A stretch of 64,000 nucleotides of DNA from IMG/VR virus record IMGVR_UViG_3300027896_005002, positions 251,488-315,487 of that record; one strand, written 5' to 3'. Shown here piece after piece: positions 7,270 to 56,365 of the stretch. This DNA is from a virus. The position numbers and the translations under genes were made by a program. The notes beneath the pieces are model-generated. The model did not search any database. It was not told the DNA's origin and saw only the letters and a list, made by a program, of their open reading frames with translations. Every line of letters begins with the position of its first letter. The stretch's first letter is position 1.

Positions 7270-7314
7270 GGTACATTATTTACCAATTTTTGCTATTGTA
7301 TTACAGGTAGTTAA

Positions 7315-8129: not shown

Positions 8130-8132
8130 CTG

Positions 8133-9153: not shown

Positions 9154-9165
9154 ATTTTCCTCTAT

Positions 9166-21269: not shown

Positions 21270-21301
21270 AGTATTATAATCATGTTAGAAATCATTGATT
21301 T

Positions 21302-21766: not shown

Positions 21767-21767
21767 A

Positions 21768-39571: not shown

Positions 39572-40528
39572 TTAAAACTGAAAATCCGTGCTTTTCATAA
39601 TGTTCATTCCGGCCTTTTTGAATTTTTTGAATTCATTTTGTGTGATGGCTTCAAAATCCACTAGAGGATGTTTAACCGAACTCATACAATCCTCGAAAAT
39701 GAATACCTTTTTCAAAACATCCGGATCTTTTACGACAACGGCAAAGTAGTCGTAGATTTGCAATTCAGTTTCCAACACGCAATGGCTCTTTGCCTGGCCC
39801 ATGATGATGACCTTGTCGTGTTTCATCAACAGATTCAAGAAATCCGTATTGAATCCGCCTTGTTTGTGCTTTGCAATCGGTACTTCGGGCTTCAGAATAC
39901 CGTACATTTCTGATTGTGGAATGAGACCTTTTTGCAAGAAGTTGAGTTGGGATTTTCTTGCAAAAGCATGGAACGCAAGAATTTCAAACAGAGAAGGATC
40001 CATTGCATTGCCGGGCGTTCCAAGCATTGTATGATAAGGCCACAACATCAGTTTCTTTTGGGAATTTCTTTCCAATGTTGCTTCATACTCGATACTGCCT
40101 ACCGGATCGATGATTGCCTGAAAATCACCTTTATCCATTAACTTTTTCTCAAGTATGGAATAAATATCCGGTTTTTGCTGTTTCAGTGTCCTCCACCATG
40201 ACCGGTAGAAGATCTGGAAAATAAGATGGGTGTCCAAAGAAGCGAAGATCGTCGTTATTCTATCCATATTTGTCAGGATAAAAGTAATTGCTCGACGAAT
40301 ATCTTCTTCAGCTCCATCAACATATAGTGATCCATCCTTGTGACAAAAATCGATTTGCATATCGATGATCATCAATGCAATCTTCTCTTTGTCTGTTACC
40401 GATGCCGGAATGGACATTGCATCGGCTTCCTGTTCAACAATTCCGACTCCAGCCGGATTTTTGTACAACCGAGGTAGAAACAGTGTTCCTACTTTTGCTG
40501 GATCATAAAACGACGGCTTAAATGTCAT
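39572..40528 (-). CDS. Isochorismatase-family cysteine hydrolase (candidate nicotinamidase PncA-like)
   Basis: ALMIIDMQIDFC...GSLYVDGAE (catalytic Asp context) and IMGQAKSHCVLETE (catalytic Cys context GxxxxxCVxxT). Confidence 0.6.
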   Translation of the reverse strand: MTFKPSFYDPAKVGTLFLPRLYKNPAGVGIVEQEADAMSIPASVTDKEKIALMIIDMQIDFCHKDGSLYVDGAEEDIRRAITFILTNMDRITTIFASLDTHLIFQIFYRSWWRTLKQQKPDIYSILEKKLMDKGDFQAIIDPVGSIEYEATLERNSQKKLMLWPYHTMLGTPGNAMDPSLFEILAFHAFARKSQLNFLQKGLIPQSEMYGILKPEVPIAKHKQGGFNTDFLNLLMKHDKVIIMGQAKSHCVLETELQIYDYFAVVVKDPDVLKKVFIFEDCMSSVKHPLVDFEAITQNEFKKFKKAGMNIMKSTDFQF

Positions 40529-40579: not shown

Positions 40580-42439
40580 TCAACTTAATTCTAAGTAAAT
40601 AATTTTATTTGTTAAAATAGATAAAATTCCTTGTGTGTATAACATCAACTGACTTGAATCATTTACATAGCTAGCAGTCGATGCTTTTACTGATACATTA
40701 CCATGCTTTTCAATAGCAATACCTGAATCAGTAGGATGAATTAAATTAGATCCTGCAAACGTTTTTCCATAAATATTAGACAATAATTCTGAACTTATTG
40801 ATTCTTCAGATTTTGTTTCCAATATTTTTCCCTTATCATCGATAATATGCCAATGAGAATATGTCCGACCATTATGTATATTCTTCCGTAATAAAAGAAC
40901 ACTATTAACAGAAGTAATTACATCCATATCTATAACCTGACCTGGTAAATCCGGCAACTTAATCTCATAACGAACAGTTGGAGTAAAAATAAAAAATTGA
41001 TATTTTTCAAATATTCGATAAAAACCAAAATTAAGATATTTTCCTGCTTGAATCCACGTTTGATTCTCTATTGATGACATTATATCTGTTTCAATGAAAT
41101 TGTTTCCACCAACAATTGAACCTCTCATTATTGTATTATTAGTCAATCTATAAAAACCATCATTATCACAAGTAATTACTGGTTCATTCCTGTACAACAT
41201 TGTTGATGTACTACCAACATGCTTAATGCTTTTATTGCTAACATCAAATATTAATACTTTAGTGTTTTGAGCAACTACAAGATAATGTAGTAAAAAGTAT
41301 TCATATCTGAAATCCTTTTGAAATCCTTGCCACAAAGTAATTGTGTTTTCAGAATTTTTTGTAACTAATGATAAATTAGTATTTTTGCCATCATAACTTA
41401 TAACAACAATTGTATCATTAATCACTTTAGTAAATAGAATTGTTCCTTCAATTTGAAATAATGTAGAAGCCACACATTGCTCTTTTCCAACCTGTTTTGT
41501 CATTTTTACTTTTGACAAATTTGCAGTAATTTGAGGTGTAACTTGCATACACTGCGGACAGGTACCTCTAGAATTATGATAAAATGTTTTACAAGCGCTA
41601 CATTCAATGAATGAATTTTGCAATGATTGAAGTAAAGTAATGGGTAAATTTGGTCGTTGACCATGACAGAAAATTTCTGAAAAATATGTTAAAAGTTCAT
41701 CACTTATAGTTTCAGGTTTTTTTCCCATTACAGGATAAGTAACACTCTTGTCAAAAACCCAGACATTATTTTGTGCTCGTGTAAACAATGTTTTATGTTG
41801 TTGTTGAATTCCACCATAAGGATGAACAAAGAATAAACTTTTGAAAAGTATTACAGCAAAAGAATACCAATCTGTTTGCTGTGTAAACATTGGCTTTTTT
41901 GTCAAATCAACACCATATAAACTAGGATCAATAAAATCTTCTGTTCCAACTATACATGGATAACTGTCAAATTGAAATGAATCAACATCTATATAAATCG
42001 GTACATAAGTAGTAATATCGAATAATATATTAAGATCGTTAAAATCACCAACAATTATACCTAAATCATGAATTGAATCCAAAGTTGTTTTTGTTTGAGT
42101 AAAACAATCCACAACATGATTAGTAGTTATTTGCTGTACGCTTCGAAATTTTGTAACCGATAAATTTCTAATATCTTTGCAATTATCTGCAATACCCATT
42201 GCAAAACCAATAACTTTATTTCTATTATCATATAAATTGTCGATCGGCGCCATTACATTGACTGGAAAAGCAAATCTATGTGATAAAAAATCCTGTAGTT
42301 TTTTTGCTCTTTCCGCTGTAGGTTGATGATAAATTTTAAACGCAACATTACCATGAACTACAATGTTTGCCTCACCACCACTACCGATACTCTTTTTAGG
42401 ATCAATAGTAATTGGTGTACCTTGATAAATTACTTGCAT
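40580..42439 (-). CDS. Eukaryotic-like Ser/Thr protein kinase domain with large C-terminal zinc-ribbon and repeat region
   Basis: Gly-rich loop IGSGGEANIV, Lys in VAFKIY, catalytic loop IHDLGIIVGDFNDLNILF (HxDxxxxN), DFG-like YIDVDSF; C-terminal CSACK...CPQC. Confidence 0.65.
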   Translation of the reverse strand: MQVIYQGTPITIDPKKSIGSGGEANIVVHGNVAFKIYHQPTAERAKKLQDFLSHRFAFPVNVMAPIDNLYDNRNKVIGFAMGIADNCKDIRNLSVTKFRSVQQITTNHVVDCFTQTKTTLDSIHDLGIIVGDFNDLNILFDITTYVPIYIDVDSFQFDSYPCIVGTEDFIDPSLYGVDLTKKPMFTQQTDWYSFAVILFKSLFFVHPYGGIQQQHKTLFTRAQNNVWVFDKSVTYPVMGKKPETISDELLTYFSEIFCHGQRPNLPITLLQSLQNSFIECSACKTFYHNSRGTCPQCMQVTPQITANLSKVKMTKQVGKEQCVASTLFQIEGTILFTKVINDTIVVISYDGKNTNLSLVTKNSENTITLWQGFQKDFRYEYFLLHYLVVAQNTKVLIFDVSNKSIKHVGSTSTMLYRNEPVITCDNDGFYRLTNNTIMRGSIVGGNNFIETDIMSSIENQTWIQAGKYLNFGFYRIFEKYQFFIFTPTVRYEIKLPDLPGQVIDMDVITSVNSVLLLRKNIHNGRTYSHWHIIDDKGKILETKSEESISSELLSNIYGKTFAGSNLIHPTDSGIAIEKHGNVSVKASTASYVNDSSQLMLYTQGILSILTNKIIYLELS

Positions 42440-43261
42440 TTAATTGACCTCTATATTTGTAAGCTTTTCTGCACAACTTGCACAAACATTACATATTTCC
42501 TTTGCATCATTTGTTAATAGACTATTACATGTTGCACATAATGTTTCAAAAATCACACAGCACACATCATCATTAAATAACTTTTCATTTTGCCATACAT
42601 TAATTCTACGTTGTAATTGTCGCCCTTTAGTACCATACAAATCACTTATATGATACTTATCATGATTTATAAGTGGTGTCAGTCCGTCAGAACCGATAAT
42701 TAATCTTTTGACGTTTACAGTTAAGTAATTTCTTATTTCTATACCACTTAATTTTGTTCTGGATTGTGTAAGATATTTATCAGGTATATTTCCATATGCA
42801 AGATAATGAGGACTATTATCTTGATCAAATTTGATGACATCATTATTGATAACTATTACACCATCACCACAACGACCTATAAGAGTATTTATATCATCAA
42901 TAATAAAAAAGATGAACGTTGCAAGTAGATTATTTTTAATAAAATCAACTTGTTCTGATATATCAAAAATCATTAAATTTCTTAGGAATTCATCAATATA
43001 AGTATAAACACTATGCGTTAAAATTGCAGCTAAATCTGATTTAATTTGTTGTTGCGCATTAAGTTGTTGTAATTTTTTTAAAATAAATGTTCCTAACAAA
43101 TTAGCTCCAATTTCAGAATTTGTTCCTTCTGAACAACCATCACAAATAATACCATAAATAGTATTATTTGCTGTAGCTATTTTGCAAAAATCCTGCAAAT
43201 TTTTTCTTTCAAAAATATGATCATGACCAATATGAATTGCACTATTTAAAGAAAAAATCAT
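42440..43261 (-). CDS. PP2C-family Ser/Thr protein phosphatase
   Basis: ICDGCSEGTNSEIGANL (PP2C DGxGG...G..AS region) and IIGSDGLTPLI (PP2C xxSDGL motif). Start placed at the internal Met MIFSLNS (43261) because the longer track ORF overlaps the upstream gene by 95 nt. Confidence 0.6.
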   Translation of the reverse strand: MIFSLNSAIHIGHDHIFERKNLQDFCKIATANNTIYGIICDGCSEGTNSEIGANLLGTFILKKLQQLNAQQQIKSDLAAILTHSVYTYIDEFLRNLMIFDISEQVDFIKNNLLATFIFFIIDDINTLIGRCGDGVIVINNDVIKFDQDNSPHYLAYGNIPDKYLTQSRTKLSGIEIRNYLTVNVKRLIIGSDGLTPLINHDKYHISDLYGTKGRQLQRRINVWQNEKLFNDDVCCVIFETLCATCNSLLTNDAKEICNVCASCAEKLTNIEVN

Positions 43262-43322
43262 TATATTCTCCGGGTTAAAACGAAAAGTCCAGATTTTATA
43301 CTGGACTTTTCTTAAAAATGGA

Positions 43323-44129
43323 TTATGCTGCTTTTGCTTTTGCTTTATCCTTCGCCATATATCGTTGCATCCTAACGGCAACATCCTTAATACCATAAAT
43401 GTCCAATTGAAAATCATTCAATAATTCAACTGGATCGATGCCTAAAATGGCAACAGTATAAAGTATTGATGGCATAATAGTGCCGATGTCTTTTATGTAA
43501 AAATCAATATTGTTTTGGCCGTAAAATTGACGTTTAATGTCTTCTTCCATTTTACCAGTTCGCATAAAAGCCAAAGAACACCACGCCACATGATTTCCAT
43601 GAAGAATCGACATCATTTCTATCGAATTAACGTTCTTTATGGCAACTATCAACATGTCAATGACATCCTGTTCGGAATATAGAATGCTTGACTTATTGCA
43701 AAGAAAAGCACTTATACTTTTTGCCAATGACATTGTTGTTGCCTGATTACTTACTTTTGCACCATGCGGCAATTCATCGAATGTGACAAAATTGGGATTA
43801 AACACTTTGTCTGCGGGATTTGCATCGGTTGAAATTCCTAATTGTAATCTTGCTTCAGGCGACAGGTCCTTTACATAAACTGCATTTTGTTCTTTGCCAG
43901 TAAATGTATAGGATTTCATTCCTGCACCTGCATAATCAATTTTGAGAGTTTTTCCTACCGGAAAAAAACCCTTAAATGGATTATGTAGATCATCCATTTT
44001 AGCTTTTTGTCCTTCATACCAAATATCATGAGGACAACGAGCCGGAATATCAACCGTCTCTAACAAATACAAATAAACTGCACTACCACTGCCAGGTATA
44101 GTGGTAGGTTTATCAATCGGATACCTCAT
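43323..44129 (-). CDS. Hypothetical protein adjacent to phosphatase
   Basis: 268 aa, Lys/Ala-rich C-terminal tail (KDKAKAKAA); no family recognised. Confidence 0.3.
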   Translation of the reverse strand: MRYPIDKPTTIPGSGSAVYLYLLETVDIPARCPHDIWYEGQKAKMDDLHNPFKGFFPVGKTLKIDYAGAGMKSYTFTGKEQNAVYVKDLSPEARLQLGISTDANPADKVFNPNFVTFDELPHGAKVSNQATTMSLAKSISAFLCNKSSILYSEQDVIDMLIVAIKNVNSIEMMSILHGNHVAWCSLAFMRTGKMEEDIKRQFYGQNNIDFYIKDIGTIMPSILYTVAILGIDPVELLNDFQLDIYGIKDVAVRMQRYMAKDKAKAKAA

Positions 44130-44147: not shown

Positions 44148-44816
44148 CTACTTTATGATTTCACCTGTTTTGTAAGACCAAAACAATATGTCTAAGTGGT
44201 CAATATTTATATCAATTTGATTTGCAAAGTTCATCATACGTCGCTCAATCTCAATGTATTCTTTACCATTTCTTGGCTTTGAAACTTTGACTTTAAATAA
44301 ATTTAACATAGAAATGATATGTTTATCTAAAATAGCAAAGCCTTGATATCCTACATTTCGTAAAAAATGACTACTTTCTTTAAAACCTATTCCTAAAATG
44401 TTTAATTTAAGAAATTCACGAAGAGCAAATTGATCATTAATGATTTCAAATATTCGGAATAAATTTAATCCAAAACTACGTTGAAGATAATCTCTAGATT
44501 CAATTATATATTTTGCTCTTACGTTTGGAAATCGATGGTTATGTTTTAATTTATTTTTGATGGTTTCTTCATTATCGGTTATAATAGTGTCACCGAGAAT
44601 ATCAATACATCTTAGCGCCATTTTTGCACTGGCATTTGCGGTAAGAATACAAAAAACTAATTCTTTGAAAAGTGCTAACCTATCGCCACTAGAACCAATT
44701 GCTTGGAATTCACTTAGTCGATGTTCAATTTGAGGCTGGATAAGATTATAATAATCTTTTAGACTACTTATAGAATCAATTACTTTTGAATTATCAACTT
44801 TTATAATGTCGATCAC
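44148..44816 (-). CDS. HhH-GPD DNA glycosylase, Ogg2-like (8-oxoguanine DNA glycosylase / AP lyase)
   Basis: ELVFCILTANASAK and ILGIGFKESSHFLRNVGYQGFAILDKHI match the Ogg2 signature (GxGxKxASHFLRNxGxxDxAIxDRHI) with the catalytic Lys and Asp. Confidence 0.55.
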   Translation of the reverse strand: MIDIIKVDNSKVIDSISSLKDYYNLIQPQIEHRLSEFQAIGSSGDRLALFKELVFCILTANASAKMALRCIDILGDTIITDNEETIKNKLKHNHRFPNVRAKYIIESRDYLQRSFGLNLFRIFEIINDQFALREFLKLNILGIGFKESSHFLRNVGYQGFAILDKHIISMLNLFKVKVSKPRNGKEYIEIERRMMNFANQIDINIDHLDILFWSYKTGEIIK

Positions 44817-45622
44817 AACAAATTTGTAACTTCTCTAACAAAATGTTGAAAATCAGATCGTTCTCTGATTTTAGGATCCCAAGCCATGCCCATTTCCTTA
44901 AGATCATATTGCTTGGTAATTGTTGCCCCTTCTTTATCTGGTTCTTTAGCCAATAACCAAACTGTATCTGCAATAGCCATTGCACTTTCAAGATCATGAC
45001 TAACCAAAATCAATGTATTATATTCGTTTAACACGGAAATCTTGAGTAATAATTCAATCACTTTGTCTTTCATCAATGTATCTAAACCAGAAAACGGCTC
45101 ATCCAAAAGAATGAATTTATTATCCGTCAGAATTTGCTGAATAATGCTTACGCGTTGTTTTTGTCCGCCCGAAAGTTGTGCAGGATATTTATTTAATTGT
45201 TCTGAAAGACCAAAATCAGTAGCATATTTACGTATTATAGAATCAGCAGTTGTACTATCGTATTTTTTTCCACAATGAGACAATCCTCTTTTGAGATTGT
45301 TGTAAATTGTTCTGTGATCAAAAAGTATATAATTTTGTGGAATAATACCCACTTCGCCTGGAGTAACTAAATGCTGATCTTCTGTTATAAGAACGCGACC
45401 TGTTGTTGGCCTCATTAATCCAGAAAGAATTTTAAATAATTGAGTTTTTCCCAAACCACTGCGACCAACAAGAGCAACGACTTGTCCTTGATCAACATTG
45501 GCTCGAACCACATCCCTAATTTCAAAATTGATGTCACGGAGAATTTGACGACCCGTATATTGAAGGCTAACATCTTTTGCCGACAACAGAACATTTTTTA
45601 ATTGGTAATCTATTTTATTCAT
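44813..45622 (-). CDS. ABC transporter ATP-binding protein
   Basis: Walker A GRSGLGKTQ, ABC signature LSGGQKQRV, Walker B ILLDEPFSGLD. Start placed at Met 45622 (ATGA overlap with the permease stop) instead of the track start 45670. Confidence 0.8.
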   Translation of the reverse strand: MNKIDYQLKNVLLSAKDVSLQYTGRQILRDINFEIRDVVRANVDQGQVVALVGRSGLGKTQLFKILSGLMRPTTGRVLITEDQHLVTPGEVGIIPQNYILFDHRTIYNNLKRGLSHCGKKYDSTTADSIIRKYATDFGLSEQLNKYPAQLSGGQKQRVSIIQQILTDNKFILLDEPFSGLDTLMKDKVIELLLKISVLNEYNTLILVSHDLESAMAIADTVWLLAKEPDKEGATITKQYDLKEMGMAWDPKIRERSDFQHFVREVTNLL

Positions 45623-46488
45623 TTGTTCACCTGTAATGTTGAATAAAGAAATAAACAACGACGTAACCATCTTAAACTTATGTCAATTAAAACACCAAAA
45701 AAGAATATAATCATAAGAACCGCAAACACTCTTGGTAAATTCAAAATCTTATTGGCCTTTATGATCATTGTGCCTAAACCACCTTCTGCCATACTTAAAC
45801 CTTCAACCATTGTAATCATTAACCAAGATATTGCAAAGTTTTGTCGAATGACTTCAACAACCATATCAAGTTGTCCCAAAATAATTACTTCATATAATGT
45901 TTCATATTTACCAAAGCGAAGTGTTTTACATAAATCATATTGTTGATTGTTAATTTGTGCCAAAATTGATGTTAATGAAGTAATAAAAAATGGTACAATA
46001 CCAAAAATCAAAAGACTGATTTTTAATTGACTCGTATCTTTTGACATCAAAGTAAATAGGAATATTAAACCATTAAGTGTTAAATATCGACATTGAGTCA
46101 TAAAATTTGTAATTGGTCGAATTATAGGAATGACTGATGCATATGTAAATATTAATGCAATTACCATTGAATAAAGCATTGCTTTAATTGTTAGCATCAA
46201 ACTGCTAAACAAATTATCAATGAAGCCTTGTTCAGTGACAATTGCAGCAATATTCTGAGCCACAATAAATGGTCCAGGTATTAAACTTTCTTTGCCGCAA
46301 ATTAAATGCCAACAAAGAAAAGCTAATATTACTTCAAAAACAATAACAATAGTTTTTGCTCGTTTTGGAAGTGTCGCAAAAGGTTCAAACATTGGAATTT
46401 TCATTTTTATTTTTCCCTTAAAAAAGAAAGACTTGGAAAATGTAAAGAGATCAACCACGCCAGTAGCCAAGCCTCTAAACATCTCCAA
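45619..46488 (-). CDS. ABC transporter permease
   Basis: 289 aa with multiple hydrophobic helices, directly upstream of the ATPase and downstream of the binding protein. Confidence 0.6.
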   Translation of the reverse strand: MEMFRGLATGVVDLFTFSKSFFFKGKIKMKIPMFEPFATLPKRAKTIVIVFEVILAFLCWHLICGKESLIPGPFIVAQNIAAIVTEQGFIDNLFSSLMLTIKAMLYSMVIALIFTYASVIPIIRPITNFMTQCRYLTLNGLIFLFTLMSKDTSQLKISLLIFGIVPFFITSLTSILAQINNQQYDLCKTLRFGKYETLYEVIILGQLDMVVEVIRQNFAISWLMITMVEGLSMAEGGLGTMIIKANKILNLPRVFAVLMIIFFFGVLIDISLRWLRRCLFLYSTLQVNK

Positions 46489-46498
46489 GTCCTATTAA

Positions 46499-48262
46499 TT
46501 AATTACCAAGGACAATTTCTACTCGACGATTCTTTGCACGACCTGCAGCACTTGAATTATCCGCTATTGGTCTTGTATCACCAAAACCTTGAGCCTCAAG
46601 AGCTTTGGGCTTCATTCCTTTTGTTGTTAGTAAATAATCCTTTACTGCATTTGCGCGATTATCGGAAAGTTCAAGATTTTTCTCAGTATTTCCGGTATTA
46701 TCGGTATGACCATAAATACCCAACTTACAACCTTCTGCAACCATTGCAGAGTTGAATATTTCATCAAGTACTCTGTAGGATTCAGGTCTGATTTTGGAAC
46801 TTCCAACCTCAAACTGAATTTGATATGATTTTGATGAAACTTTAGTAGTGATTTGATCGGAATAATTTACGGCTAAAGCTTTTCCTTCCATTAATTCCGG
46901 ATGGTTTGCAACCACAGACATTAGGAATGATTTATCAATTACCTTGGAATAATCCGGATAGGTTGGCATTATTTCCGGATACATTTTGCTTAAAATAGTT
47001 CCAAAGGTATTGTAAACGATTTTGTATCGATCGATACCATCTTTTCCTAAGCCGAACATATTGGCAGCATCCGAAAGATTAAAAGCCATTGAACCGCCAA
47101 GATCAACTTCGAAATTTTGAACATCTTTTTGTTTCATTCCATTATAATATTTAAGCCAATATGTTGGATCCTGTTCATTATAGACCTTGGCTGATACTTT
47201 TGCCGCAAACATTTTTGCATCGCTGAAAGACCGAACTTGATCACCTGCAGTTCCCAATGCTGCAATCAAACTTTCAATATCTGATCGATGATCATTGGCA
47301 AATTTCTTGATTGTGATTGTGATGTTCGGCATTTGCGATGCATATTGTTTTGTGGAAGCAATAGTAACCAATCCACCTTTTTTGGTTGCTACATTGACAT
47401 CACCAGGTGTCCAAGTGGCAACAGCATCAACATTAACCGAAGTGTCTTTGTTTGTCTTCTTACCATTAATAACAAGTTTGCGTTTGTCTTTGATTTCCGA
47501 GATGTACTTGTTTGGAGCGTCCAGAAAATCACTGGCAGCAATAATATTAATGGCATTATAGTCATAAGTGGTTTCATCCGGATTGACTGAAAGACCATTG
47601 TCACCAGCCCATTTAAGAAGAATGTTAATATCACCGTCACGAAGAACGCCGGCAACGCATTTTCCGATAGCAGCTTTGGGATTTGTTTTCCATTCTGGAG
47701 GTCCCATAATTTTATCTTCACCATAGGATTTTCCCATTGGATAGAATCCCATCGGTTGATAGTCAGGACCGAGAGGTGCTAATTCCTTACATAAACCTTG
47801 GAAAAATGCCGGCATTCCGTCACCCATAAATGATGCAAATACAGCATTAGTTGATGGATTATTTTTGTAATCCTGTGCAAATTTAACAACATCCGCACAT
47901 GCTTTACTGCAATCATCCTGACGGATAATATTAATTGTAAGTCCAGCTTTTTCGATCAATGATCCTTTTGTTGTAACCGGACCGCCATTGGCATACATAA
48001 GAGCGAATTGCGAATTCCATGCCATGATTTTCCAATCAACTTTTACCGCACCATTACCACTTTCCTGATCTGAAGGCATTGCAAGTTTTTGTGCGTTGCC
48101 ACTGAACGATGCTTCCGGAGCATCAGGTAATGTTACCTTTCCGACGACTGCGGCAGCTTTTGCAACCTTTGGTAATTTGTCATACCATAAGGTTTTGCCA
48201 CCAAGAATGGCACCAATGACAATGATGCCCAACATTAATTGACCTCTAGCCTTGATCTTCAT
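46499..48262 (-). CDS. ABC substrate-binding protein (NMT1/SsuA/TauA-like) fused to a C-terminal OmpA/MotB peptidoglycan-binding domain
   Basis: N-terminal signal/anchor, large periplasmic domain, and C-terminal NTGNTEKNLELSDNRANAVKDYL...GFGDTRPIADNSS...RRVEIV, the OmpA-C signature. Higher GC than the flanks. Confidence 0.6.
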   Translation of the reverse strand: MKIKARGQLMLGIIVIGAILGGKTLWYDKLPKVAKAAAVVGKVTLPDAPEASFSGNAQKLAMPSDQESGNGAVKVDWKIMAWNSQFALMYANGGPVTTKGSLIEKAGLTINIIRQDDCSKACADVVKFAQDYKNNPSTNAVFASFMGDGMPAFFQGLCKELAPLGPDYQPMGFYPMGKSYGEDKIMGPPEWKTNPKAAIGKCVAGVLRDGDINILLKWAGDNGLSVNPDETTYDYNAINIIAASDFLDAPNKYISEIKDKRKLVINGKKTNKDTSVNVDAVATWTPGDVNVATKKGGLVTIASTKQYASQMPNITITIKKFANDHRSDIESLIAALGTAGDQVRSFSDAKMFAAKVSAKVYNEQDPTYWLKYYNGMKQKDVQNFEVDLGGSMAFNLSDAANMFGLGKDGIDRYKIVYNTFGTILSKMYPEIMPTYPDYSKVIDKSFLMSVVANHPELMEGKALAVNYSDQITTKVSSKSYQIQFEVGSSKIRPESYRVLDEIFNSAMVAEGCKLGIYGHTDNTGNTEKNLELSDNRANAVKDYLLTTKGMKPKALEAQGFGDTRPIADNSSAAGRAKNRRVEIVLGN

Positions 48263-48300
48263 AGAAGATCACTCCTTTCTTTAAGGTTAATGGATACCAA

Positions 48301-49305
48301 TTATTTTAATAATGAATCATAAACATCAGTAGTTGGAACTTCACCTGCATTTATCGATTGAATTCCTTGTGTTTTCATTTTTTCCATTTGCTTCCATGTA
48401 TTATCTTCATCAAATGTTTTTAAGAATTCTAAACCTTCATGTTGAGCCGATGCATTTTCAAGATCAATTGATTTCATATATTCGGAAGTACAACTTATGG
48501 CACGTTTCATGTTTGAAACTTTTCCGGCAATGTCAGTCTTTAATAAATCCAATGATTGTTCAACCATTAATTGTTTTTCAGGATCACCATTAAAGAACCT
48601 TTGAGCAGCGCCTAGTGCCTTACTACCGGCTGTAACTGACCTATATAATTGTTTTTGCAAATCAAGAGCATTTTTTGCATCATCAATCATAAAGGCACTC
48701 TTTTTGTAAATCATATCCAAGTAATTATATGTTTTACATAAATTATCATAAATTGGCATTAATGATTGAATGAATGAATTAAGACGACCTGCTTGCGCAG
48801 AAGCATTAGCAACTTGATCTTCATAACCTTTTTTGCCAGAGCCTGTGGTAACTATTGATTTCTGTTTCGTTAGGTCTTTTTGTTTCTCTTTTAATGTGCC
48901 TTCTAATCGTTCTTTTTCCAGCCCAATATCATTTGCTAAAAGATCATTTATTTTTTCTCGTTGTTTTACCATATCCTTGATTTGATCTTCAGCCAAAACA
49001 AATGGATCCCATTCAAAAATAAGACCAACCGTATATTTCATTAGTATATCCCAAACAGCCTGAAGTCGTAATCGTAAAGGTTTATTTGTCACAAGGAATA
49101 AAAACAAAAGGGCTGCTACACAAGCAATGCCCACATTAATTGTATTCCATATTACCGCAGTCAGCATTGGAAATGCCCACATTGCTAAAACTGCAAAGCC
49201 TCCAAGAGCAACAACGGTTTTAACTTTACCACCTGGCCGATTCCAATAAGCTTTTAGCTTTTGATCACCGGCTTGCATCATAGCATATGAATTCATAAAA
49301 ATCAT
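48301..49305 (-). CDS. Membrane-anchored coiled-coil protein
   Basis: Two N-terminal TM helices, then a long predicted coiled-coil region. Confidence 0.3.
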   Translation of the reverse strand: MIFMNSYAMMQAGDQKLKAYWNRPGGKVKTVVALGGFAVLAMWAFPMLTAVIWNTINVGIACVAALLFLFLVTNKPLRLRLQAVWDILMKYTVGLIFEWDPFVLAEDQIKDMVKQREKINDLLANDIGLEKERLEGTLKEKQKDLTKQKSIVTTGSGKKGYEDQVANASAQAGRLNSFIQSLMPIYDNLCKTYNYLDMIYKKSAFMIDDAKNALDLQKQLYRSVTAGSKALGAAQRFFNGDPEKQLMVEQSLDLLKTDIAGKVSNMKRAISCTSEYMKSIDLENASAQHEGLEFLKTFDEDNTWKQMEKMKTQGIQSINAGEVPTTDVYDSLLK

Positions 49306-49312
49306 CCTTTCC

Positions 49313-49981
49313 TTAAGAGATATATTGTTGAGATTTTGTCATTATTGTTTCAATTTTCTTTGTAAAAGTATCACATGCAGCTAAAAAGCCACCTTCATTC
49401 TTTTGTAATTGCATAGTTGCCGTTGAAATTTCAGTTTGTAAACTTTCTGCAGTCTTAACAAGCTGTTCATTGAGTTTTAAAAGTCGGTCAATTTCAGCTT
49501 TATTTGTTTCAATTGTTTGTGTCACTTCTAATATTTTTGATTTTCTTGAATTCGATTCATTGTCAATCTTCTTTTTCAAAGCAGTTTGAAAACCATCCCT
49601 ATCTTTTGCAATAACTTCCATATAAGTTTTTGCACTTTGAATTACTTTATCCTTTGTCATACCATTAAGAGCCAATGACGCAAAAGCCGCAGTATATGCT
49701 AACTTTTCATCCGCAACAGTCGGTAAAAGTTTTTCAAGAACCTGAGCAAATTCATAGTAATCAGGTCCTGGCAAATTAGCACCTTTTAAAAGAGAATCAA
49801 AATGTTCGATAAACTTTGCTAAATCAACATCAGGAACAGAAACTGGCGCAGCTGGCGTTGACACTTGAAATGATTGTGATGGTAACGGCGACTTTTGCTG
49901 TGTTGGATTTTGCGGCTTTGGTCTTTCATCGTCAAAGTCTGCAAGACCTGCACTTTGAAGTACTTTTTTTATTTTATTCAT
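49313..49981 (-). CDS. Hypothetical coiled-coil protein
   Basis: 222 aa; Pro/Gln-rich N-terminus, helical C-terminus. Confidence 0.3.
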   Translation of the reverse strand: MNKIKKVLQSAGLADFDDERPKPQNPTQQKSPLPSQSFQVSTPAAPVSVPDVDLAKFIEHFDSLLKGANLPGPDYYEFAQVLEKLLPTVADEKLAYTAAFASLALNGMTKDKVIQSAKTYMEVIAKDRDGFQTALKKKIDNESNSRKSKILEVTQTIETNKAEIDRLLKLNEQLVKTAESLQTEISTATMQLQKNEGGFLAACDTFTKKIETIMTKSQQYIS

Positions 49982-50004: not shown

Positions 50005-51180
50005 CTACATTATTCCTAATGTTTGTTTACAAAGATTAACTGTTTTAATATTACCAGTATATTTTTTAGCGTCATCTGATAATTTTATTGTGTCTATCCA
50101 TTCATTACCAAAATTACATGCTATTAATTTAATGACTATATTAAGTGGTTTTACACCAACATCGTTTGTAAACCATGTACCAATACCATATCGATCAATT
50201 GCTTTATCTTTGCAAGCTTCATGAATAACATTAATCTGATCCATGGAATGAAGATTGTCCGAAAACATTAACATTTTACTGAGAGGATTTATTCTAAGTT
50301 TTTGATAATGTGCTATTGCTTTATCTAAAAAAATCAATGGTTGTCCACTATCTTGACGCATACCATCATAAAGCTTTGCATACTTTGTATTAAAAGATTT
50401 AAGAAAAACATCGGTGGTAAAAGTATCAGGTAATGCTGTTCCAAGATCACCATTAAATACTTCAACCCATGCTTCATTGGCCATATCATTGGCCATTTTA
50501 AATCCATATAAAGCTGCATGAAGCATATACCATTCATGAGCAACTGTTCCCATAGGAATAAGATTATGTAACATCGCAAAATGAATATTACTTGTTCCTA
50601 ACATATGACCATTGCCGTATTTTTTCAAATGTGCTATGGTTTCATTTTGAACGTGATAAGCAAATCGTCTTCGAGATCCAAATTCTGAATAGTAAATATT
50701 CATATTAGCTAATTTTTCTGCTTTGTCCCGATTATTTTGTTCCCGTTTTTCTATACTGTATATATCATTTTTAATTTCTTTACACGTCATTCTATAATAA
50801 AGTTCACTTATTGTACTCATTAATGGTACTTCCCATAAAACAGTTCTGTAAGCAGGTCCAATAATATCAACACTTAAATCTGGACCTTTTTGTTCTATTT
50901 TAACTTCACTAGGATCAAATTGATATCCTGCAAGAAAATCTAAATAAACGGGATTTAAATAATAACATCGTTCTCGTAAAAAATCTTTTTCATCATTACT
51001 AAGTTTCATTGTTCTAAAACCATCAACAAGTTTGCGTAATTGTTCAGCAAATCCGTCAGGAAATTCTCTCTTGTCACGATTTATAAACTTATAATGATTA
51101 AAAACTTTTGGATATTTTTGACAAATAGCCATGTCCATGGTTAATTTATATAAATCAGTATCTAGCATTGATGAAATCAT
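50005..51180 (-). CDS. pncB: Nicotinate phosphoribosyltransferase
   Basis: N-terminal MLDTDLYKLTMDMAI (NAPRTase hallmark LDTDxYKxTM), plus GTSN and GTVAHEW motifs. Confidence 0.8.
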   Translation of the reverse strand: MISSMLDTDLYKLTMDMAICQKYPKVFNHYKFINRDKREFPDGFAEQLRKLVDGFRTMKLSNDEKDFLRERCYYLNPVYLDFLAGYQFDPSEVKIEQKGPDLSVDIIGPAYRTVLWEVPLMSTISELYYRMTCKEIKNDIYSIEKREQNNRDKAEKLANMNIYYSEFGSRRRFAYHVQNETIAHLKKYGNGHMLGTSNIHFAMLHNLIPMGTVAHEWYMLHAALYGFKMANDMANEAWVEVFNGDLGTALPDTFTTDVFLKSFNTKYAKLYDGMRQDSGQPLIFLDKAIAHYQKLRINPLSKMLMFSDNLHSMDQINVIHEACKDKAIDRYGIGTWFTNDVGVKPLNIVIKLIACNFGNEWIDTIKLSDDAKKYTGNIKTVNLCKQTLGIM

Positions 51181-51941
51181 AGTATCTCCCTTTTAACTGT
51201 GTATCCACTTGAATACTTTCTTTCACCTCTAATCACTTTATAAATATTTTTAATATTATGTTCTTTACAAAAAGCACGCAAATTATCTGTGGTAAATTCT
51301 TTACCATCAATATTTGTCAAAATAAAAATCCTATAATTTCTATTTTTTCCTAACATTGAATTTCGCATTTTCTCTCTTGTAATAAATGTTATGACTCTAT
51401 TTTTTCGTGCTTTACTTAAATTTCTTTTGTGATTATCGGAAAATTTTATTCCTTTTTTAATGTTACTTAATAAATCTTTAGTCTCTTTAGAATGATGTCC
51501 CCATGATATACCTTTTTTATTTTTGCTGATTCTTTCTCTAGTCTCATTAGAAATAACCTTACCACTTGCACCATCTCCACCATCAGAAAGATTAGTTAAA
51601 GGTCCAACATTTAAATTCAATCTACCAATTGTTTTAATTAGTAATGTTTCTAAATCAAAAGCTTCTTCTTCACTTAAATTTTCTTTTATTTTTAAAATTA
51701 TTGGTTCTTTTCCTATTTGTAAAATATTACGAATAGTCTGTAACCTTAATAACTTAATTTCATTTATAAATAGTTTTTGATTTTTTTTACTCTTTTTTAA
51801 TTGATGTAAATAACGTTTTCTTCGACCTTTTCCAACATAAAATGGCTCATATTCAAATTCAAAATCTTTATACTTATATATACCTTTTTTTCTTATATCT
51901 AAATAAATATAAACATAAAAATCTTTTAACTCGTCATTCAT
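51177..51941 (-). CDS. GIY-YIG homing endonuclease with NUMOD3-like repeats
   Basis: FYVYIYLDIRKKGIYKYKDFEFEYEPFYVGKGRRKRY carries GIY...YVG and the Arg; C-terminal repeats SNETRERISKNKKG / SDNHKRNLSKARKN resemble NUMOD3 DNA-binding modules. Confidence 0.7.
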   Translation of the reverse strand: MNDELKDFYVYIYLDIRKKGIYKYKDFEFEYEPFYVGKGRRKRYLHQLKKSKKNQKLFINEIKLLRLQTIRNILQIGKEPIILKIKENLSEEEAFDLETLLIKTIGRLNLNVGPLTNLSDGGDGASGKVISNETRERISKNKKGISWGHHSKETKDLLSNIKKGIKFSDNHKRNLSKARKNRVITFITREKMRNSMLGKNRNYRIFILTNIDGKEFTTDNLRAFCKEHNIKNIYKVIRGERKYSSGYTVKREIL

Positions 51942-51944
51942 AAT

Positions 51945-52808
51945 TTACATTATTTTTGCTTTAGAATCCCAATCAGTATATAATGAATTATCCGGTCTGT
52001 AAACTAAAGATTTTATACTTGAAGCAGTATTATTTTGTGTACAAGTTGAAGTTGATACAGTAACACCATTAATATCATAGGGTTGACCATTTCCAAACCA
52101 ATTCAATTTATCGCCATCACTTTCAACAACAATATCATCCAACCATTGAGTAATTTGATCTTGAGTTATTCTATTGTCATAACACCAACTCAAAAAATTA
52201 TCCATGTGCTTTACATTTTTTGGTATCCATAATTCTCTAAAAACTATAGATGTTACACCAAGTGATTTGTAATGCATAATATAACTAATCATTTGATTTT
52301 TTGAATTTATTCCGGCCTTGCATACAACACAACTTAATCTAACTGCAAGACCTAAATTAGTTAACTTTTTAAATAATTGAACATAATCCAATTCCAAACC
52401 ATACAATTCCTGACATTTATCAGTATTGTAATGCGGTACTGTCATTGTTAAATTAGTGATATAAGGAGCCAACATTTGGGAAAAATCCCGGCCAAAAGAA
52501 GGCATTGCCAGAATTTCAGAACCATTTGTATGAAGATCAATTTGACCGAAGTATTTTTTGCAAAGCCATAAAATATTTTCAATATTTGTCCAACTGCCTA
52601 ACAATGTTTCTCCAGAAGATGTTATAATCGCAGTCGAAGCATTTCCGTCTTTTGCGTATTTAATGCATTTTTCCAGTTTGGGTAAATTAATTCCAGGTTT
52701 TTTCAAATCTTTACGAATGTCTGCTGTCATAGCAGCTATGCAATATTTACATTTTGCATTACATCCGACTTCTTGAGGAACAATAGAAATAGAACTTATA
52801 TGCATCAT
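51945..52808 (-). CDS. Radical SAM enzyme, substrate unknown
   Basis: VGCNAKCKYCIA (CxxxCxxC) and SSGETLL (GGE-like SAM motif). Confidence 0.6.
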   Translation of the reverse strand: MMHISSISIVPQEVGCNAKCKYCIAAMTADIRKDLKKPGINLPKLEKCIKYAKDGNASTAIITSSGETLLGSWTNIENILWLCKKYFGQIDLHTNGSEILAMPSFGRDFSQMLAPYITNLTMTVPHYNTDKCQELYGLELDYVQLFKKLTNLGLAVRLSCVVCKAGINSKNQMISYIMHYKSLGVTSIVFRELWIPKNVKHMDNFLSWCYDNRITQDQITQWLDDIVVESDGDKLNWFGNGQPYDINGVTVSTSTCTQNNTASSIKSLVYRPDNSLYTDWDSKAKIM

Positions 52809-54412
52809 TTTCCTTGGAATTGGTTAAACAAATTAGCAATCGGCATCCTACGACCGATAATAAGATCCCTTTCTGATATGATTAATCCTGGAGCAGCTTG
52901 ATGTCTTTTATATTCATTTTTATCAACCATTTGAATTACTCTAGCTACAGTTTTATAATCAAACCCATTGTCGATGATATCATCAGCCGACATATTCTTT
53001 TCTATGTATCTTTTTAAAATACCGTCCAAAATATCGTAGGGCGGCAGTGAATCTGTGTCTTTCTGCTCAGGTTTTAGTTCTGCTGAAGGAGGTTTTGTAA
53101 TTGTATTTTTAGGTATTTGCAAATAAAGTTCACATATTTTATAAATAGTAGTTTTATAGACATCTGAAATTACAGATAAACCACCACACATATCACCATA
53201 AAGTGTACAATAACCTACTGACATTTCTGATTTATTTCCAGTAGATAATAATAATCGACCTTCATCATTTGAAACAGCCATTAATAAACAACCACGAATT
53301 CGAGCTTGAAGATTTTGTTCCGTAACATCCGATTTATATATTCCACCCAATGCAATATTATATACTTGTAATATTTGCTCAATATTTACTATTTGTGACG
53401 TCATCCCTAAATTATTAACTAAATCTTGAGCATCTGTTATGCTTCCCTGACTTGAATATGCCGACGGCATCAATAAACCATGTACATTTAAAGCACCTAA
53501 AGCTTCAACAGCAAGTGCAGCAGTCAAAGCAGAATCAACACCGCCAGATAATCCTAATACTGCTTTTTCGAATTTAGTTTTATAAAAATAATCACTAATT
53601 CCCAAAACCAAAGCCTTTTTGATTTGAACAGTGTCGCTTGGATATTCATTTACTGTGCCTTCGATATGTTTCAGTTGATGGTCTTCAAATTGTACCATAA
53701 CATTTGCTTCTGTAAATTGAGGTGCAATCATTTCAGCAATATCACCATTAACAATCATACTGGCACCATCAAAAATCAATCCATCCTGGCTACCGACCTG
53801 ATTGACATAGAGAATTGATTTGCCAACTTCCGTACTTCGTTTGGTAAGGACTTGTTTTCTTATTCCAACTTTACCTTTTGAAAAAGGTGATGCATTTAAT
53901 GAGATGATGAGATCGGTATCCTTATACATTGATACTGGTTTTTTATCATAATCATCATCCCAAGCATCTTCACAAATAATCAAACCGATTTTCGTTCCTT
54001 TTACGTCTAAAATCAATTTGGACGTTCCAGGAGTAAAATATCGCCGTTCATCAAATACAACTTTGTTCGGCAAAAGTTGCTTATAATATCGATTCACTTT
54101 ACCATTTTTAATCGCACTTGCAACATTATATAAATGAAGCCCAACCTTGACAACATGGCCTACAATAATAACTAAATTACTATAAGCTTTGGATAATACA
54201 CAAACATCGTCAAAAGTATTAGTATTGGCGTCAATGAAAGCCTGATTATATAAAAGATCTTTTTGTGGATATCCGGTTATTGTAGCTTCTGGGAAAACAA
54301 CAATATCTGCATTCTTATTTGCTGCAATCATCACACTGGATTTTATTTTATTTAAATTTTGTATAAAATTACCAACAGAAGTATTGATTTGTGCCACCAT
54401 TATTTTTAACAT
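52805..54412 (-). CDS. nadE: Glutamine-dependent NAD+ synthetase (nitrilase/CN-hydrolase domain plus NadE)
   Basis: PP-loop GLSGGVDSAL in the C-terminal synthetase domain; the N-terminal domain has the CN-hydrolase layout (...VFPE...CEDAWD...). Confidence 0.8.
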   Translation of the reverse strand: MLKIMVAQINTSVGNFIQNLNKIKSSVMIAANKNADIVVFPEATITGYPQKDLLYNQAFIDANTNTFDDVCVLSKAYSNLVIIVGHVVKVGLHLYNVASAIKNGKVNRYYKQLLPNKVVFDERRYFTPGTSKLILDVKGTKIGLIICEDAWDDDYDKKPVSMYKDTDLIISLNASPFSKGKVGIRKQVLTKRSTEVGKSILYVNQVGSQDGLIFDGASMIVNGDIAEMIAPQFTEANVMVQFEDHQLKHIEGTVNEYPSDTVQIKKALVLGISDYFYKTKFEKAVLGLSGGVDSALTAALAVEALGALNVHGLLMPSAYSSQGSITDAQDLVNNLGMTSQIVNIEQILQVYNIALGGIYKSDVTEQNLQARIRGCLLMAVSNDEGRLLLSTGNKSEMSVGYCTLYGDMCGGLSVISDVYKTTIYKICELYLQIPKNTITKPPSAELKPEQKDTDSLPPYDILDGILKRYIEKNMSADDIIDNGFDYKTVARVIQMVDKNEYKRHQAAPGLIISERDLIIGRRMPIANLFNQFQGK

Positions 54413-54436: not shown

Positions 54437-55087
54437 TTAAAAATTCCATGAATGATACCACCACAAACCAATTGAATAATCAGGCTTATTTGTCACATCA
54501 TCCATTATAATACCAAGAGAAAATGAATTATTGCTGAGATTTATACCAATACCCGGAACTAATCTAAGCGTTTGAGTGTGTTGTTTAAATCCAGTAATAG
54601 GAATAATATCACAGAAAATATCGAATTTACTATTAAATTTGTATCCTGGTGTAATACATGTCCATAAAGAAAGATCATTAGAATTATATGTAATATTCAA
54701 TCCTGTGTTATTTTGCATGTACCAATGAGTAGTTTCAAAAAACATGCCATGATATTGTAATGAAATATATTCATCATTAGCCAATATTGCTGCAAGATTA
54801 TTTTTTGTAATTGCATATCGAACCATTCCCCACCAAGAATTATATGAAAAATCCGGAATAAAAGTTATTGATCCAACATTAGCCCAGACATCAATATTAT
54901 CGGTAATGCCTACTGCAGCAAGTAAATCGGCACCAACTGTTGTTGAAGATTTAAAATTATAGACGTAGGCATATGGGTTTGCTACAATTGTTCTTTTCCC
55001 TGACATCATGGGAAAACAAGAATAACTATACGGAAAAGCATAAAATACGATCGCGCAAACAATCATTGACATTAAAATCTTTTTCAT
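54437..55087 (-). CDS. Outer-membrane beta-barrel-like protein (signal peptide, C-terminal aromatic residue)
   Basis: Start placed at MKKILMSMIVCAIVFYAF (signal-like); alternating aromatic/hydrophilic strands; ends ...WWYHSWNF with a terminal Phe, as in OMP barrels. Confidence 0.4.
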   Translation of the reverse strand: MKKILMSMIVCAIVFYAFPYSYSCFPMMSGKRTIVANPYAYVYNFKSSTTVGADLLAAVGITDNIDVWANVGSITFIPDFSYNSWWGMVRYAITKNNLAAILANDEYISLQYHGMFFETTHWYMQNNTGLNITYNSNDLSLWTCITPGYKFNSKFDIFCDIIPITGFKQHTQTLRLVPGIGINLSNNSFSLGIIMDDVTNKPDYSIGLWWYHSWNF

Positions 55088-55442: not shown

Positions 55443-55802
55443 TTAAAAATCCTCAATAGTTGTAACAACTCTATTCTTTACAATAAGCCTATATTTACCA
55501 CATGGAATTTTACCAGATTTTAAATGATCAATAAGTGTTACATTTTTTTCTGACAGAATTTCATTTGAAATTGCAGCAATGTCAATTTTCAATACTCTTT
55601 CGCAATATCGCAATAATGCGTGTTCTGATACTACTGGTTTTCTATTCGAAATTTCTCTAATTTCCCGTCTTGTTTTTTCTAATTGTCGAGTTTTATCAAT
55701 GAGTTGTTGCCTCAATCGATCAAAATCTTTTTGAAGAAAAAGCAAATCTGATTCTAATTGAGTTTGTATAACTTGAAGCCGTTTTAAATCTTGTGCATCC
55801 AT
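55443..55802 (-). CDS. Hypothetical coiled-coil protein
   Basis: 119 aa ORF. Confidence 0.3.
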   Translation of the reverse strand: MDAQDLKRLQVIQTQLESDLLFLQKDFDRLRQQLIDKTRQLEKTRREIREISNRKPVVSEHALLRYCERVLKIDIAAISNEILSEKNVTLIDHLKSGKIPCGKYRLIVKNRVVTTIEDF

Positions 55803-56365
55803 TATAACATTTTATTTTTACAGAAAAATTGTATAAAAGAAACATATTTTGACAAAAGAAGAGTTTTCATGTCATGATGAGTCATTGAAATAAATTCATC
55901 AGCAGGCATTATTATTCTTTCAATTTTCTCACCTTCTTCTTCAAGTCCAAAAATTGTCCCATCCTTTAATTGATTTTGTTCAATAATTACATAAGCTAAA
56001 TATGCACATGATGTCAGTATACCTGGTGCTGCTGCAACCGGCTGTCCATTATTTAGTAAATTGACTTGTTCTATTGTAACAGAAGCTTTAATTTCTTCCC
56101 ATAATTCTTTTACAATTAATTCTTTCACACCTATTTTGGTATCAAATAAACCAGCAGGCACTTCGACTAAAAGTGGCGTTCCTGATGATATTTTTTCTCT
56201 CAAAGCTGTCCGTTCTTGTTTTACTAAAACAACACTATCTCGATCCCTTAAATAAACCAAAACAGCCACACAATCAGGTACTTCTACTACTTCTTTACCT
56301 GATATATCTATAAATACCTTTGAGAATCCAGAATGTAGCATTTTTTTAACATATTCATTTTTCAT
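55802..56365 (-). CDS. Nudix hydrolase, ADP-ribose pyrophosphatase-like (degenerate Nudix box)
   Basis: LLVEVPAGLFDTKIGVKELIVKELWEEIKA resembles the NudF region ...AGxLDxGE....A.RELxEExG; the final Gly of the box is not conserved. Confidence 0.45.
   Translation of the reverse strand: MKNEYVKKMLHSGFSKVFIDISGKEVVEVPDCVAVLVYLRDRDSVVLVKQERTALREKISSGTPLLVEVPAGLFDTKIGVKELIVKELWEEIKASVTIEQVNLLNNGQPVAAAPGILTSCAYLAYVIIEQNQLKDGTIFGLEEEGEKIERIIMPADEFISMTHHDMKTLLLSKYVSFIQFFCKNKML

Follow-up and report, generated by a model that had tools for sequence, protein, structure and literature searches.

The closest described counterparts of the locus treated here are bacterial operons recognised computationally by Ravi et al. 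(2024, mSystems; PMC11237479), in which genes for PspA, for a Snf7 protein anchored by a transmembrane (TM) segment, for a protein combining PBPb and OmpA domains, for a permease and for an ATP-binding cassette (ABC) ATPase are joined. Their example OGG56892.1, from Candidatus Handelsmanbacteria, presents the series PspA, PBPB+OmpA, TM permease, ABC ATPase, TM+Snf7 and AAA+, and these authors proposed a link between membrane remodelling and solute transport. The locus itself is a five-gene module on the minus strand of a 64,000-nt stretch of viral DNA (positions 251,488 to 315,487 of IMG/VR record IMGVR_UViG_3300027896_005002), which is part of a 416-kb contig; this whole stretch will be called the window, and coordinates refer to it unless another contig is named. 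The module appears to be an operon of the Ravi type with a differing gene order, and its recurrence across huge phages appears to be unreported, since a limited search of the literature on huge phages, jumbo phages, Lak phages and ESCRT-III found no mention of phage copies. The interpretation preferred in this work, to which a probability of roughly 55% is given, is that a module shared with Bacteroidota hosts couples a wall-tethered ABC importer to membrane-remodelling proteins, and that a huge phage puts it to use for the host envelope.

The five-gene module in Bacteroidota and in huge phages

The initial annotation, made from the sequence alone, had described the three genes at 44813-48262 as an ABC transporter unit. 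All three were found there, on the minus strand and intact, but they are not free-standing, as two further genes lying upstream had been overlooked. The features of the module, together with a candidate accessory gene, are as follows:

44813..49981, minus strand: five-gene module, tightly spaced on a single strand
49313..49981, minus strand: gene 1, predicted 222-aa cytoplasmic coiled-coil protein, recognised by homology and without a TM segment
48301..49305, minus strand: gene 2, predicted 334-aa inner-membrane protein (331 aa in the public gene call), with a TM hairpin and a helical-hairpin domain
46499..48262, minus strand: gene 3, predicted 587-aa periplasmic bridge protein, with a signal-anchor TM segment, a disordered linker, a solute-binding domain and an OmpA domain
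46883..48049, minus strand: solute-binding domain of gene 3 (about aa 72-460), located with Foldseek
46526..46813, minus strand: OmpA-like peptidoglycan-binding domain of gene 3 (aa 484-579), located with Pfam OmpA
45619..46488, minus strand: gene 4, ABC importer permease of the BPD_transp_1 family, TauC/SsuC/SaoP-like by Pfam and NCBIfam
44813..45622, minus strand: gene 5, ABC ATPase of 269 aa, recognised by ABC_tran, its motifs and homology
54437..55087, minus strand: accessory candidate, 216-aa putative secreted protein with a signal-peptide-like N-terminus

The same arrangement was found in bacterial chromosomes. In Chitinophaga and Ohtaekwangia, two genes, for proteins of about 220 and 325 aa, precede the gene for the fusion of binding protein and OmpA domain, and those for the permease and the ATPase come after it; the products of genes 1 to 5 share 34, 45, 69, 55 and 62% identity, respectively, with those of the Chitinophaga operon. 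A scan of bacteria with one genome per species returned 323 stretches encoding a relative; the best 80 of these, which were taken further, carry nearly without exception Bacteroidota labels, chiefly Chitinophagales and Cytophagales, along with a few odd labels of metagenome-assembled genomes (MAGs). The five genes keep the same order and strand in 60 of the 61 Bacteroidota loci with enough flank to judge, and at the three bacterial loci with examined gene tables, the operon lies among ordinary chromosomal or housekeeping genes. The idea of conserved two-component (response regulator or kinase) or Band-7 neighbours was rejected, such genes being seen at only 2 of the 80 bacterial loci; an AAA+ gene was found neither within the module nor beside it, whether in the window or at the bacterial and phage loci inspected. 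Judged by these sequence comparisons, the three genes first noticed in the window are the last three (the 3' three-fifths) of a five-gene operon common to Bacteroidota and huge phages.

A megablast search of the region against GenBank phages gave no match, and relatives were reached by protein-level searches only; PHROGs matches of the module fall in generic 'ABC transporter' families and in families of unknown function. Among GenBank phages, at least 50% of the fusion protein is covered in only 18 genomes, all of them of at least 462 kb, namely LR756500 (462 kb), 15 Lak megaphages (540-552 kb) and LR756501 and LR756503 (735 kb), while the remaining GenBank phages match the OmpA domain only. 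The complete set of five, in unchanged order and with each gene detectably homologous to its counterpart in the window, is present in LR756501 and in Lak-C1, a Prevotella phage that was translated with TAG read as sense. LR756500 has five open reading frames (ORFs) of matching size and order; tblastn identified the last three, the first can be aligned with the gene 1 family, and the second position was assigned by a match in size only. All five genes are likewise present in the close IMG/VR relatives (L006-L009, on contigs of 38-253 kb). A second IMG/VR scan, for which the Lak-type binding protein served as query, yielded 37 further contigs of 24-452 kb, in 25 of which the five genes could be detected in order; in all, at least 29 IMG/VR contigs carry the five-gene module. 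The same gene order recurs in phage-like contexts with unrelated flanks (L011-L013 and L097), and the nearest relatives of the fusion protein of the window (72-78% identity) also lie in phage-like contexts, with differing flanks and the module intact. None of the module genes is a pseudogene in the related genomes, and the analysis sustains the three-gene importer as intact while placing it within a larger unit.

Regarding the history of the module, in a rough neighbour-joining tree the window groups with phage copies as sister to a tight bacterial clade, other phage copies branching deeper, and the deep representatives include one in a bacterial context (L096) and one in a phage-like context (L097). 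Evidently, more than one transfer of the family between phages and bacteria has taken place. The content of guanine plus cytosine (GC) is 35% in the module, 31% in the phage and 42-49% in the bacterial loci; being near that of the phage and far from that of the bacterial loci, it shows that the acquisition was not recent. The closest bacterial relatives of the module point to a Bacteroidota host for the phage of the window, of the Chitinophagales or Cytophagales.

Several other observations concern the module-bearing contigs themselves. In one bacterial and several phage copies, extra ORFs, small or unrelated, separate the genes for the binding protein, the permease and the ATPase (L011, 12589..12954; L013, 12770..12967; L097, 11832..12881; L096, 11853..12278; L094, 7453..7905); one of them encodes a 349-aa DUF4419 protein, and the five core genes keep their order. 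The phage-like module contig L011 also bears, at 21290..21770, a gene with Pfam matches resembling the vault MVP shoulder. Finally, a homologue of gene 2 (P0151), deposited at NCBI under a 'Candidatus Nanoarchaeia archaeon' MAG, seems to be encoded on one contig with a module protein of phage context (P0008), as the longest contig of each measures 422,226 bp, and that contig is probably a mis-binned huge phage.

Proteins of the module and neighbouring genes

The product of gene 3 starts with a single N-terminal TM helix (aa 9-27) and ends with an OmpA domain (aa 484-579; Pfam OmpA, E 2.2e-22), which also matches the PDB structures of OmpA-C, Pal, YfiB and TagL. Both peptidoglycan-binding motifs are kept, TDNTGNTEKN (TDxxGxxxxN) and NLELSDNRANAV (NxxLSxxRAxxV), and D521 and R536 are invariant in 22 homologues. 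The profile match and the two motifs agree with the proposal, made in the initial annotation, that a C-terminal OmpA-C domain would tether this protein to the wall. The N-terminal ~400 aa (aa 1-470) gave no Pfam match, even at E 10 and with the NMT1 and NMT1_2 profiles included. An AlphaFold model of moderate confidence (built on the 22 homologues, with a mean predicted local distance difference test score, pLDDT, of 67 and a low-confidence linker) was compared with the PDB using Foldseek, and the best match of the binding domain was TauA (6ssy; E 8e-10, TMt 0.62). Further matches, in an E range from 8e-10 to 1e-7, were NrtA (2g29), CmpA (2i48), SsuA (3ksj), ThiY (3ix1), Thi5 (4h67) and a thiamin-binding solute-binding protein (4nmy). 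A distant homologue, encoded in the equivalent module of contig L010, matches Pfam NMT1 (E 1e-15) and NMT1_2 (E 1.8e-9) in addition to OmpA. The direct alignment between the fusion proteins of the window and of L010 covers only aa 278-587, with 25% identity, and the homology is bridged by the binding protein of Lak-C1, which shows 26% identity to the window protein (aa 88-568) and 37% to that of L010. At the level of the predicted fold, the binding domain of gene 3 is of the NMT1/TauA/NrtA class, with the two-lobe type II periplasmic binding fold, and the NMT1/SsuA-like character first ascribed to it was right at that level. The fold suggests, as a class of substrate, a small ligand of the anion, zwitterion or vitamin-precursor type.

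The homology searches showed that the fusion is no novelty of phages, a point that the initial annotation had missed. They returned more than 2000 full-length homologues, the named ones being 'OmpA family proteins' of Chitinophaga, Ohtaekwangia, Chryseolinea and Dawidia with 68-70% identity. A phmmer search with the binding domain alone retrieved 422 cluster representatives out of 1.84 billion, and most of the 150 matches listed are of 575-640 aa, the rest being shorter and several starting in mid-domain. These sizes indicate that the binding domain is typically fused to a C-terminal extension of the size of an OmpA domain. From such comparisons, the fusion of solute-binding protein and OmpA domain is the normal architecture of a compact Bacteroidota family and no phage invention. 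The binding protein is also the most conserved of the five products, with a median identity of 67% between phage and bacterial copies (L014-L093), against 58, 53, 44 and 33% for the other four, and the alignment of 22 sequences contains very many invariant Trp, Asp and Gly positions. Such a level of constraint, as read from the alignments, is unusual for a solute-binding protein.

The ATPase gene lies in an ORF spanning 44813..45670, and homology to Chitinophaga and the public gene call place its start at 45622, which gives a protein of 269 aa and an overlap of 4 nt between the ATPase start and the permease stop. The protein matches Pfam ABC_tran (E 3.9e-28), is 62% identical to the Chitinophaga ATPase over 269 aa, and has NrtCD, TauB, SsuB and ThiQ among its best NCBIfam matches. 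All the expected motifs are present: GRSGLGKT (Walker A, 53), IPQ (Q-loop, 94), LSGGQ (150), FILLDE (Walker B, 170), SGLD (D-loop, 178) and VSHD (H-loop, 207). The permease matches BPD_transp_1 with 31.4 bits, over a cut-off of 26.4, its best NCBIfam matches being SaoP, TauC and SsuC. It has four strongly hydrophobic segments above the prediction threshold and an EAA-like coupling loop that is recognisable but degenerate (DLCKTLRFGKYETLYEVIILGQL). Its alignment with the Chitinophaga permease (55% identity) begins at aa 34, and its true start is probably near 46404, corresponding to about 261 aa. The ATPase motifs, the BPD_transp_1 permease and the solute-binding gene directly upstream of it are those of a type I importer, and the claim of a complete ABC system with all its signature motifs holds. 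Separately, in contig L010 (JGI 3300048654, 9.4 kb) the ABC ATPase gene (6712..8691) contains an intein that carries a LAGLIDADG homing endonuclease, according to the Pfam matches Intein_splicing and LAGLIDADG_3.

Gene 2 encodes a protein with a predicted TM hairpin (aa 28-46 and 55-73), followed by a helical-hairpin domain of about 240 aa. Since positively charged segments flank the TM hairpin, both ends of the protein should be cytoplasmic. Its AlphaFold model (pLDDT 73) presents a long helical hairpin (101-155 and 162-237) and then three shorter helices, and the best Foldseek matches in the PDB are Vipp1 and PspA assemblies, with a probability of about 1.0 and an E of only 0.06-0.2. Pfam PspA_IM30 matches were obtained for 10 of the 32 members of the family, in the correct region and with a best E of 1.4e-5, and some sources label relatives of gene 2 as PspA. 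Against such an identity, the two PspA_IM30 matches with recorded scores (13.7 and 15.8 bits) lie below the 33.9-bit cut-off, the protein of the window has no profile match, and the family profile recovers no PspA from the PDB, only coiled-coil noise, as does an NCBIfam scan of the family. An hhalign comparison of the family with an approximate E. coli PspA sequence gave E 0.045 over 40 columns, with the register right and the match too weak to be relied on. In view of this mixed evidence, gene 2 is described as probably PspA/IM30/ESCRT-III-like and is not assigned as a member of that family.

The product of gene 1 opens with a short motif conserved at the N-terminus, continues with a Pro/Gln-rich linker and a conserved helical domain containing 'NLPGPDYYEF', and ends in a coiled coil; no TM segment is predicted in it. 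It is related to the product of the first gene of the Chitinophaga operon (34% identity, E 6e-34), and homologues occupy the same position in phage and bacterial loci. Searches of Pfam and the PDB with the protein and its profile returned generic coiled coils only. The possibility that genes 1 and 2 are paralogues was rejected, the hhalign probability being 10%.

A further gene, at 54437..55087, is a real ORF whose 216-aa product, described in the initial annotation as beta-barrel-like and here only a candidate for that fold, is rich in aromatic and Asn/Ser/Thr residues. Its N-terminus, MKKILMSMIVCAIVFYAF, is hydrophobic and signal-peptide-like, in agreement with the signal peptide noted initially, and its homologue P0200 has a cleaner AFA site. 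Neither a Pfam or other profile match nor a PDB match was found; a test of strand alternation against shuffled sequences was not significant (176 of 1000 reach the observed value), and the terminal Phe, a candidate beta-signal, is not conserved in P0200. Among 5.8 billion proteins, the only homologues were the protein itself and P0200 (45% identity), the gene of which directly follows, with a 4-nt overlap, the ATPase gene of the homologous five-gene module in the phage-like contig L010. A third homologue (27%, E 8e-25) is encoded 2 kb downstream of the module in L011, and none was found in the fetched flanks of the bacterial operons or of the 37 further viral loci. As both other homologues lie beside the module in phage contigs, the link first drawn between this secreted protein and the transporter gains support, and a functional link confined to a few phages is plausible.

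The window as a whole is of phage character. Its GC content is about 31%, nearly every gene lies on the same strand, and it encodes a split phage-type DNA polymerase, a helicase, a primase, an Rnl1-like ligase, a tail fibre and an NAD ligase. The alternative that the stretch does not belong to a phage was rejected, since replication and tail genes of phage type are present, the contig measures 416 kb and the closest relatives lie in phage-like contexts. The polymerase is represented by two ORFs, at 4288..7269 and 9810..11660 (both minus strand), which match different parts of the phrog_405 DNA polymerase profile and are separated by four small ORFs (7536..9786), an arrangement that resembles a split polymerase gene into which mobile elements may have been inserted. 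There are two tRNA-Cys(GCA) genes, at 61225..61292 and 62858..62948 (minus strand), the second of which, 91 nt in length, may hold an intron or insertion. Closer to the module, an Ogg-HhH 8-oxoguanine DNA glycosylase/lyase gene at 44148..44816 (minus strand; Pfam E 6e-51, NCBIfam above cut-off) has a GTG start that overlaps the ABC ATPase stop by 4 nt, and it is missing from the other module copies. The row at 40580..44129 (minus strand), a short way downstream of the module, comprises genes for a Ser/Thr kinase-like protein of 619 aa, a PP2C-type phosphatase and a 268-aa orphan, which together had been called a signalling triad. A scan for promoters and terminators, using a tool that does not cover Bacteroidota promoters, gave counts equal to those of shuffled sequences.

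Possible roles of the module

The observations described above can be integrated as follows. A type I ABC importer, composed of a TauC/SsuC-like permease and an ATPase with intact motifs, would operate at the inner membrane of the infected cell, and its binding protein, of the NMT1/TauA/NrtA class, would be pinned at both ends, by a TM helix in the inner membrane and by the OmpA domain on the peptidoglycan. On the cytoplasmic face, the hairpin-anchored PspA/ESCRT-III-like protein and its soluble coiled-coil partner would be found, and the binding or transport of solutes by this wall-tethered ABC importer would be coupled, perhaps by physical association of the five proteins, to proteins that stabilise or remodel the membrane. 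By expressing its own copy, the phage could keep the host envelope and inner membrane functional, or reshape them, during a long infection, so that what may be a membrane-maintenance role would be turned to its benefit. Several points weigh against this interpretation. A plain importer role would account for the intact ABC parts too, gene 1 encodes merely a generic coiled coil plus a novel domain, the double AAA+ ATPase of the operons of the Ravi type is lacking here, and a limited literature search found no experimental work on the bacterial operon.

The strongest rival, possible but on the whole unlikely, is precisely that the module is a plain auxiliary metabolic importer, which adds transport capacity for a small nutrient and to which genes 1 and 2 are accessory or irrelevant; the candidate nutrients would be a nicotinate- or nicotinamide-like precursor of nicotinamide adenine dinucleotide (NAD), sulfonate or taurine, nitrate or bicarbonate, or a thiamine-pyrimidine precursor. 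Besides the intact catalytic motifs, it draws on the resemblance of the permease to TauC, SsuC and SaoP, on the TauA/NrtA/CmpA/SsuA/ThiY fold of the binding domain and on the established idea, known from cyanophage pstS, that phage binding proteins boost uptake by the host. It also draws on the position of the module in this genome, directly downstream of genes for NAPRTase, a GIY-YIG endonuclease, a weak radical-SAM ORF and NadE, and with an isochorismatase-like gene downstream. The initial annotation had taken the position between the signalling triad and the NAD genes to suggest uptake of a vitamin or nucleobase precursor, nicotinamide- or nicotinate-like or sulfonate- or pyrimidine-like. 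However, no NAPRTase homologue was found in the fetched flanks of the module at nine other phage loci and 80 bacterial loci, nor was there a conserved metabolic neighbour in the loci examined, including the bacterial ones with gene tables. Because the adjacency to NAD genes is seen in this genome only, it is no evidence of substrate, and the proposed substrates did not find support. The plain importer is also at odds with a five-gene unit, membrane coiled-coil proteins included, that is almost invariant (60/61 loci), with a binding domain that makes up a compact family by itself and typically continues into a C-terminal extension as long as an OmpA domain, and with the rank of that domain as the most conserved of the five (67% median), which is unusual for a nutrient-binding protein. 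More generally, gene adjacency in a single genome is poor ground for calling ABC genes of a phage simple auxiliary metabolic genes for nutrients.

As for the NAD genes themselves, they form a salvage set at 50005..54412, 39572..40528 and 55802..56365 (all minus strand), whose members are NAPRTase, a glutamine-dependent NAD synthetase (CN_hydrolase plus NAD_synthase), an isochorismatase-like protein that is a possible nicotinamidase, and a NUDIX hydrolase. Between NadE and NAPRTase lie two insertions, the GIY-YIG homing endonuclease (51177..51941) and the weak radical-SAM ORF (51945..52808).

A more far-reaching version of the envelope interpretation, tentative and judged unlikely in this strong form, would make the module a dedicated envelope-engineering machine of Bacteroidota megaphages, in which an ESCRT-III-like polymer on the cytoplasmic side is coupled, by mechanical or chemical means, through the inner membrane to a wall-tethered ABC engine. 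In very long infections, it would serve Lak phages, Mahaphage-type phages and the 416-kb phage to strengthen, expand or compartmentalise the host membrane, the assembly would reach further towards the outer membrane by way of the secreted protein specific to phages, and phages may be a major reservoir and vector of the module among Bacteroidota.

Less probable still is a role in superinfection exclusion, in which the wall-tethered periplasmic protein, the membrane proteins and the secreted accessory protein change the envelope and so block injection by competitors, or in neutralising abortive-infection effectors that depolarise the membrane. Such a role would be in line with the suggestion that susceptibility to other phages may be influenced by membrane or surface proteins that huge phages encode (Al-Shayeb et al. 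2020; PMC7162821), with the response of PspA-type proteins to membrane damage, phage infection included (PMC7619361), and with the phage-specific secreted accessory protein. It is countered by the occurrence of the same module on the chromosomes of hundreds of Bacteroidota species, with housekeeping flanks at the three loci examined, and by a PADLOC scan, which returned generic ABC and MotB-domain matches only and no defence family fitting the module. It is just as improbable that the module acts as a sensor or mechanotransducer, the binding protein reporting envelope geometry or a periplasmic ligand and the ATPase driving the coiled-coil proteins without net import; a binding protein tethered at both ends, unlike the freely diffusing ones of Gram-negative bacteria, its very high sequence constraint and its strict coupling to cytoplasmic membrane-associated coiled-coil proteins speak for this idea, while against it the permease belongs to a classical type I importer family (BPD_transp_1) and not to the mechanotransmission type of MacB/FtsX, the conserved neighbours do not include response regulators or kinases, and we know of no precedent for a TauA/NrtA-class fold acting without transport.

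For Lak megaphages and the largest known phage, in which the five-gene block is conserved, the present findings offer a concrete annotation of that block and a hypothesis that can be tested; the vast majority of the core proteins shared by Lak phages have unknown functions, as stated in the Lak taxonomy paper. They also tie huge phages to a widespread, uncharacterised Bacteroidota operon that is genetically tractable in cultivable Chitinophaga and Chryseolinea. If gene 2 were truly ESCRT-III-like, the module would be an example of bacterial viruses carrying their own membrane-remodelling machinery.

Comparison with known systems

The operons of the Ravi type come closest to the module. Both contain a TM-anchored fusion of binding protein and OmpA domain, a permease, an ATPase and a membrane-anchored protein of the ESCRT-III superfamily (here only a probable one), and in both a second coiled-coil or PspA-like protein is present in the operon; the published proposal of solute transport coupled to membrane remodelling is also the one preferred here. 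The two differ in that both coiled-coil genes come first here, and the likeness is one of description; moreover, the published description is bacterial and does not mention phage copies.

With the TauABC, SsuABC, NrtABCD and CmpABCD transporters, the module shares a BPD_transp_1 permease, high ATPase similarity and the TauA/NrtA/CmpA/SsuA binding fold. However, it scores far below the equivalog cut-offs and has no NMT1 Pfam match, its binding domain is anchored by a TM helix and an OmpA domain, and no cognate metabolic genes (TauD, SsuD, nitrate reductase) lie near the bacterial operons examined. The likeness to PspA, Vipp1 (IM30) and ESCRT-III proteins consists in the long alpha-helical hairpin of gene 2 and the shorter helices that follow it; in contrast to these proteins, gene 2 is anchored by a TM hairpin and not by an amphipathic helix alpha-0, its similarity stays under every curated threshold, and PspB, PspC and PspF are absent. 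MotB/PomB, TssL/TagL, YiaD and Pal have the same OmpA-C domain and peptidoglycan motifs, and the same logic of an N-terminal membrane anchor and a C-terminal wall anchor, but the segment between the anchors in gene 3 is a solute-binding domain of about 400 aa for an ABC importer, and not a stator plug or a secretion component. Finally, pstS of cyanophages is likewise a phage-borne copy of a host transport component. Such phages usually carry the binding protein alone, whereas the phage of the window possesses a whole transporter and two cytoplasmic membrane-associated proteins in one conserved block.

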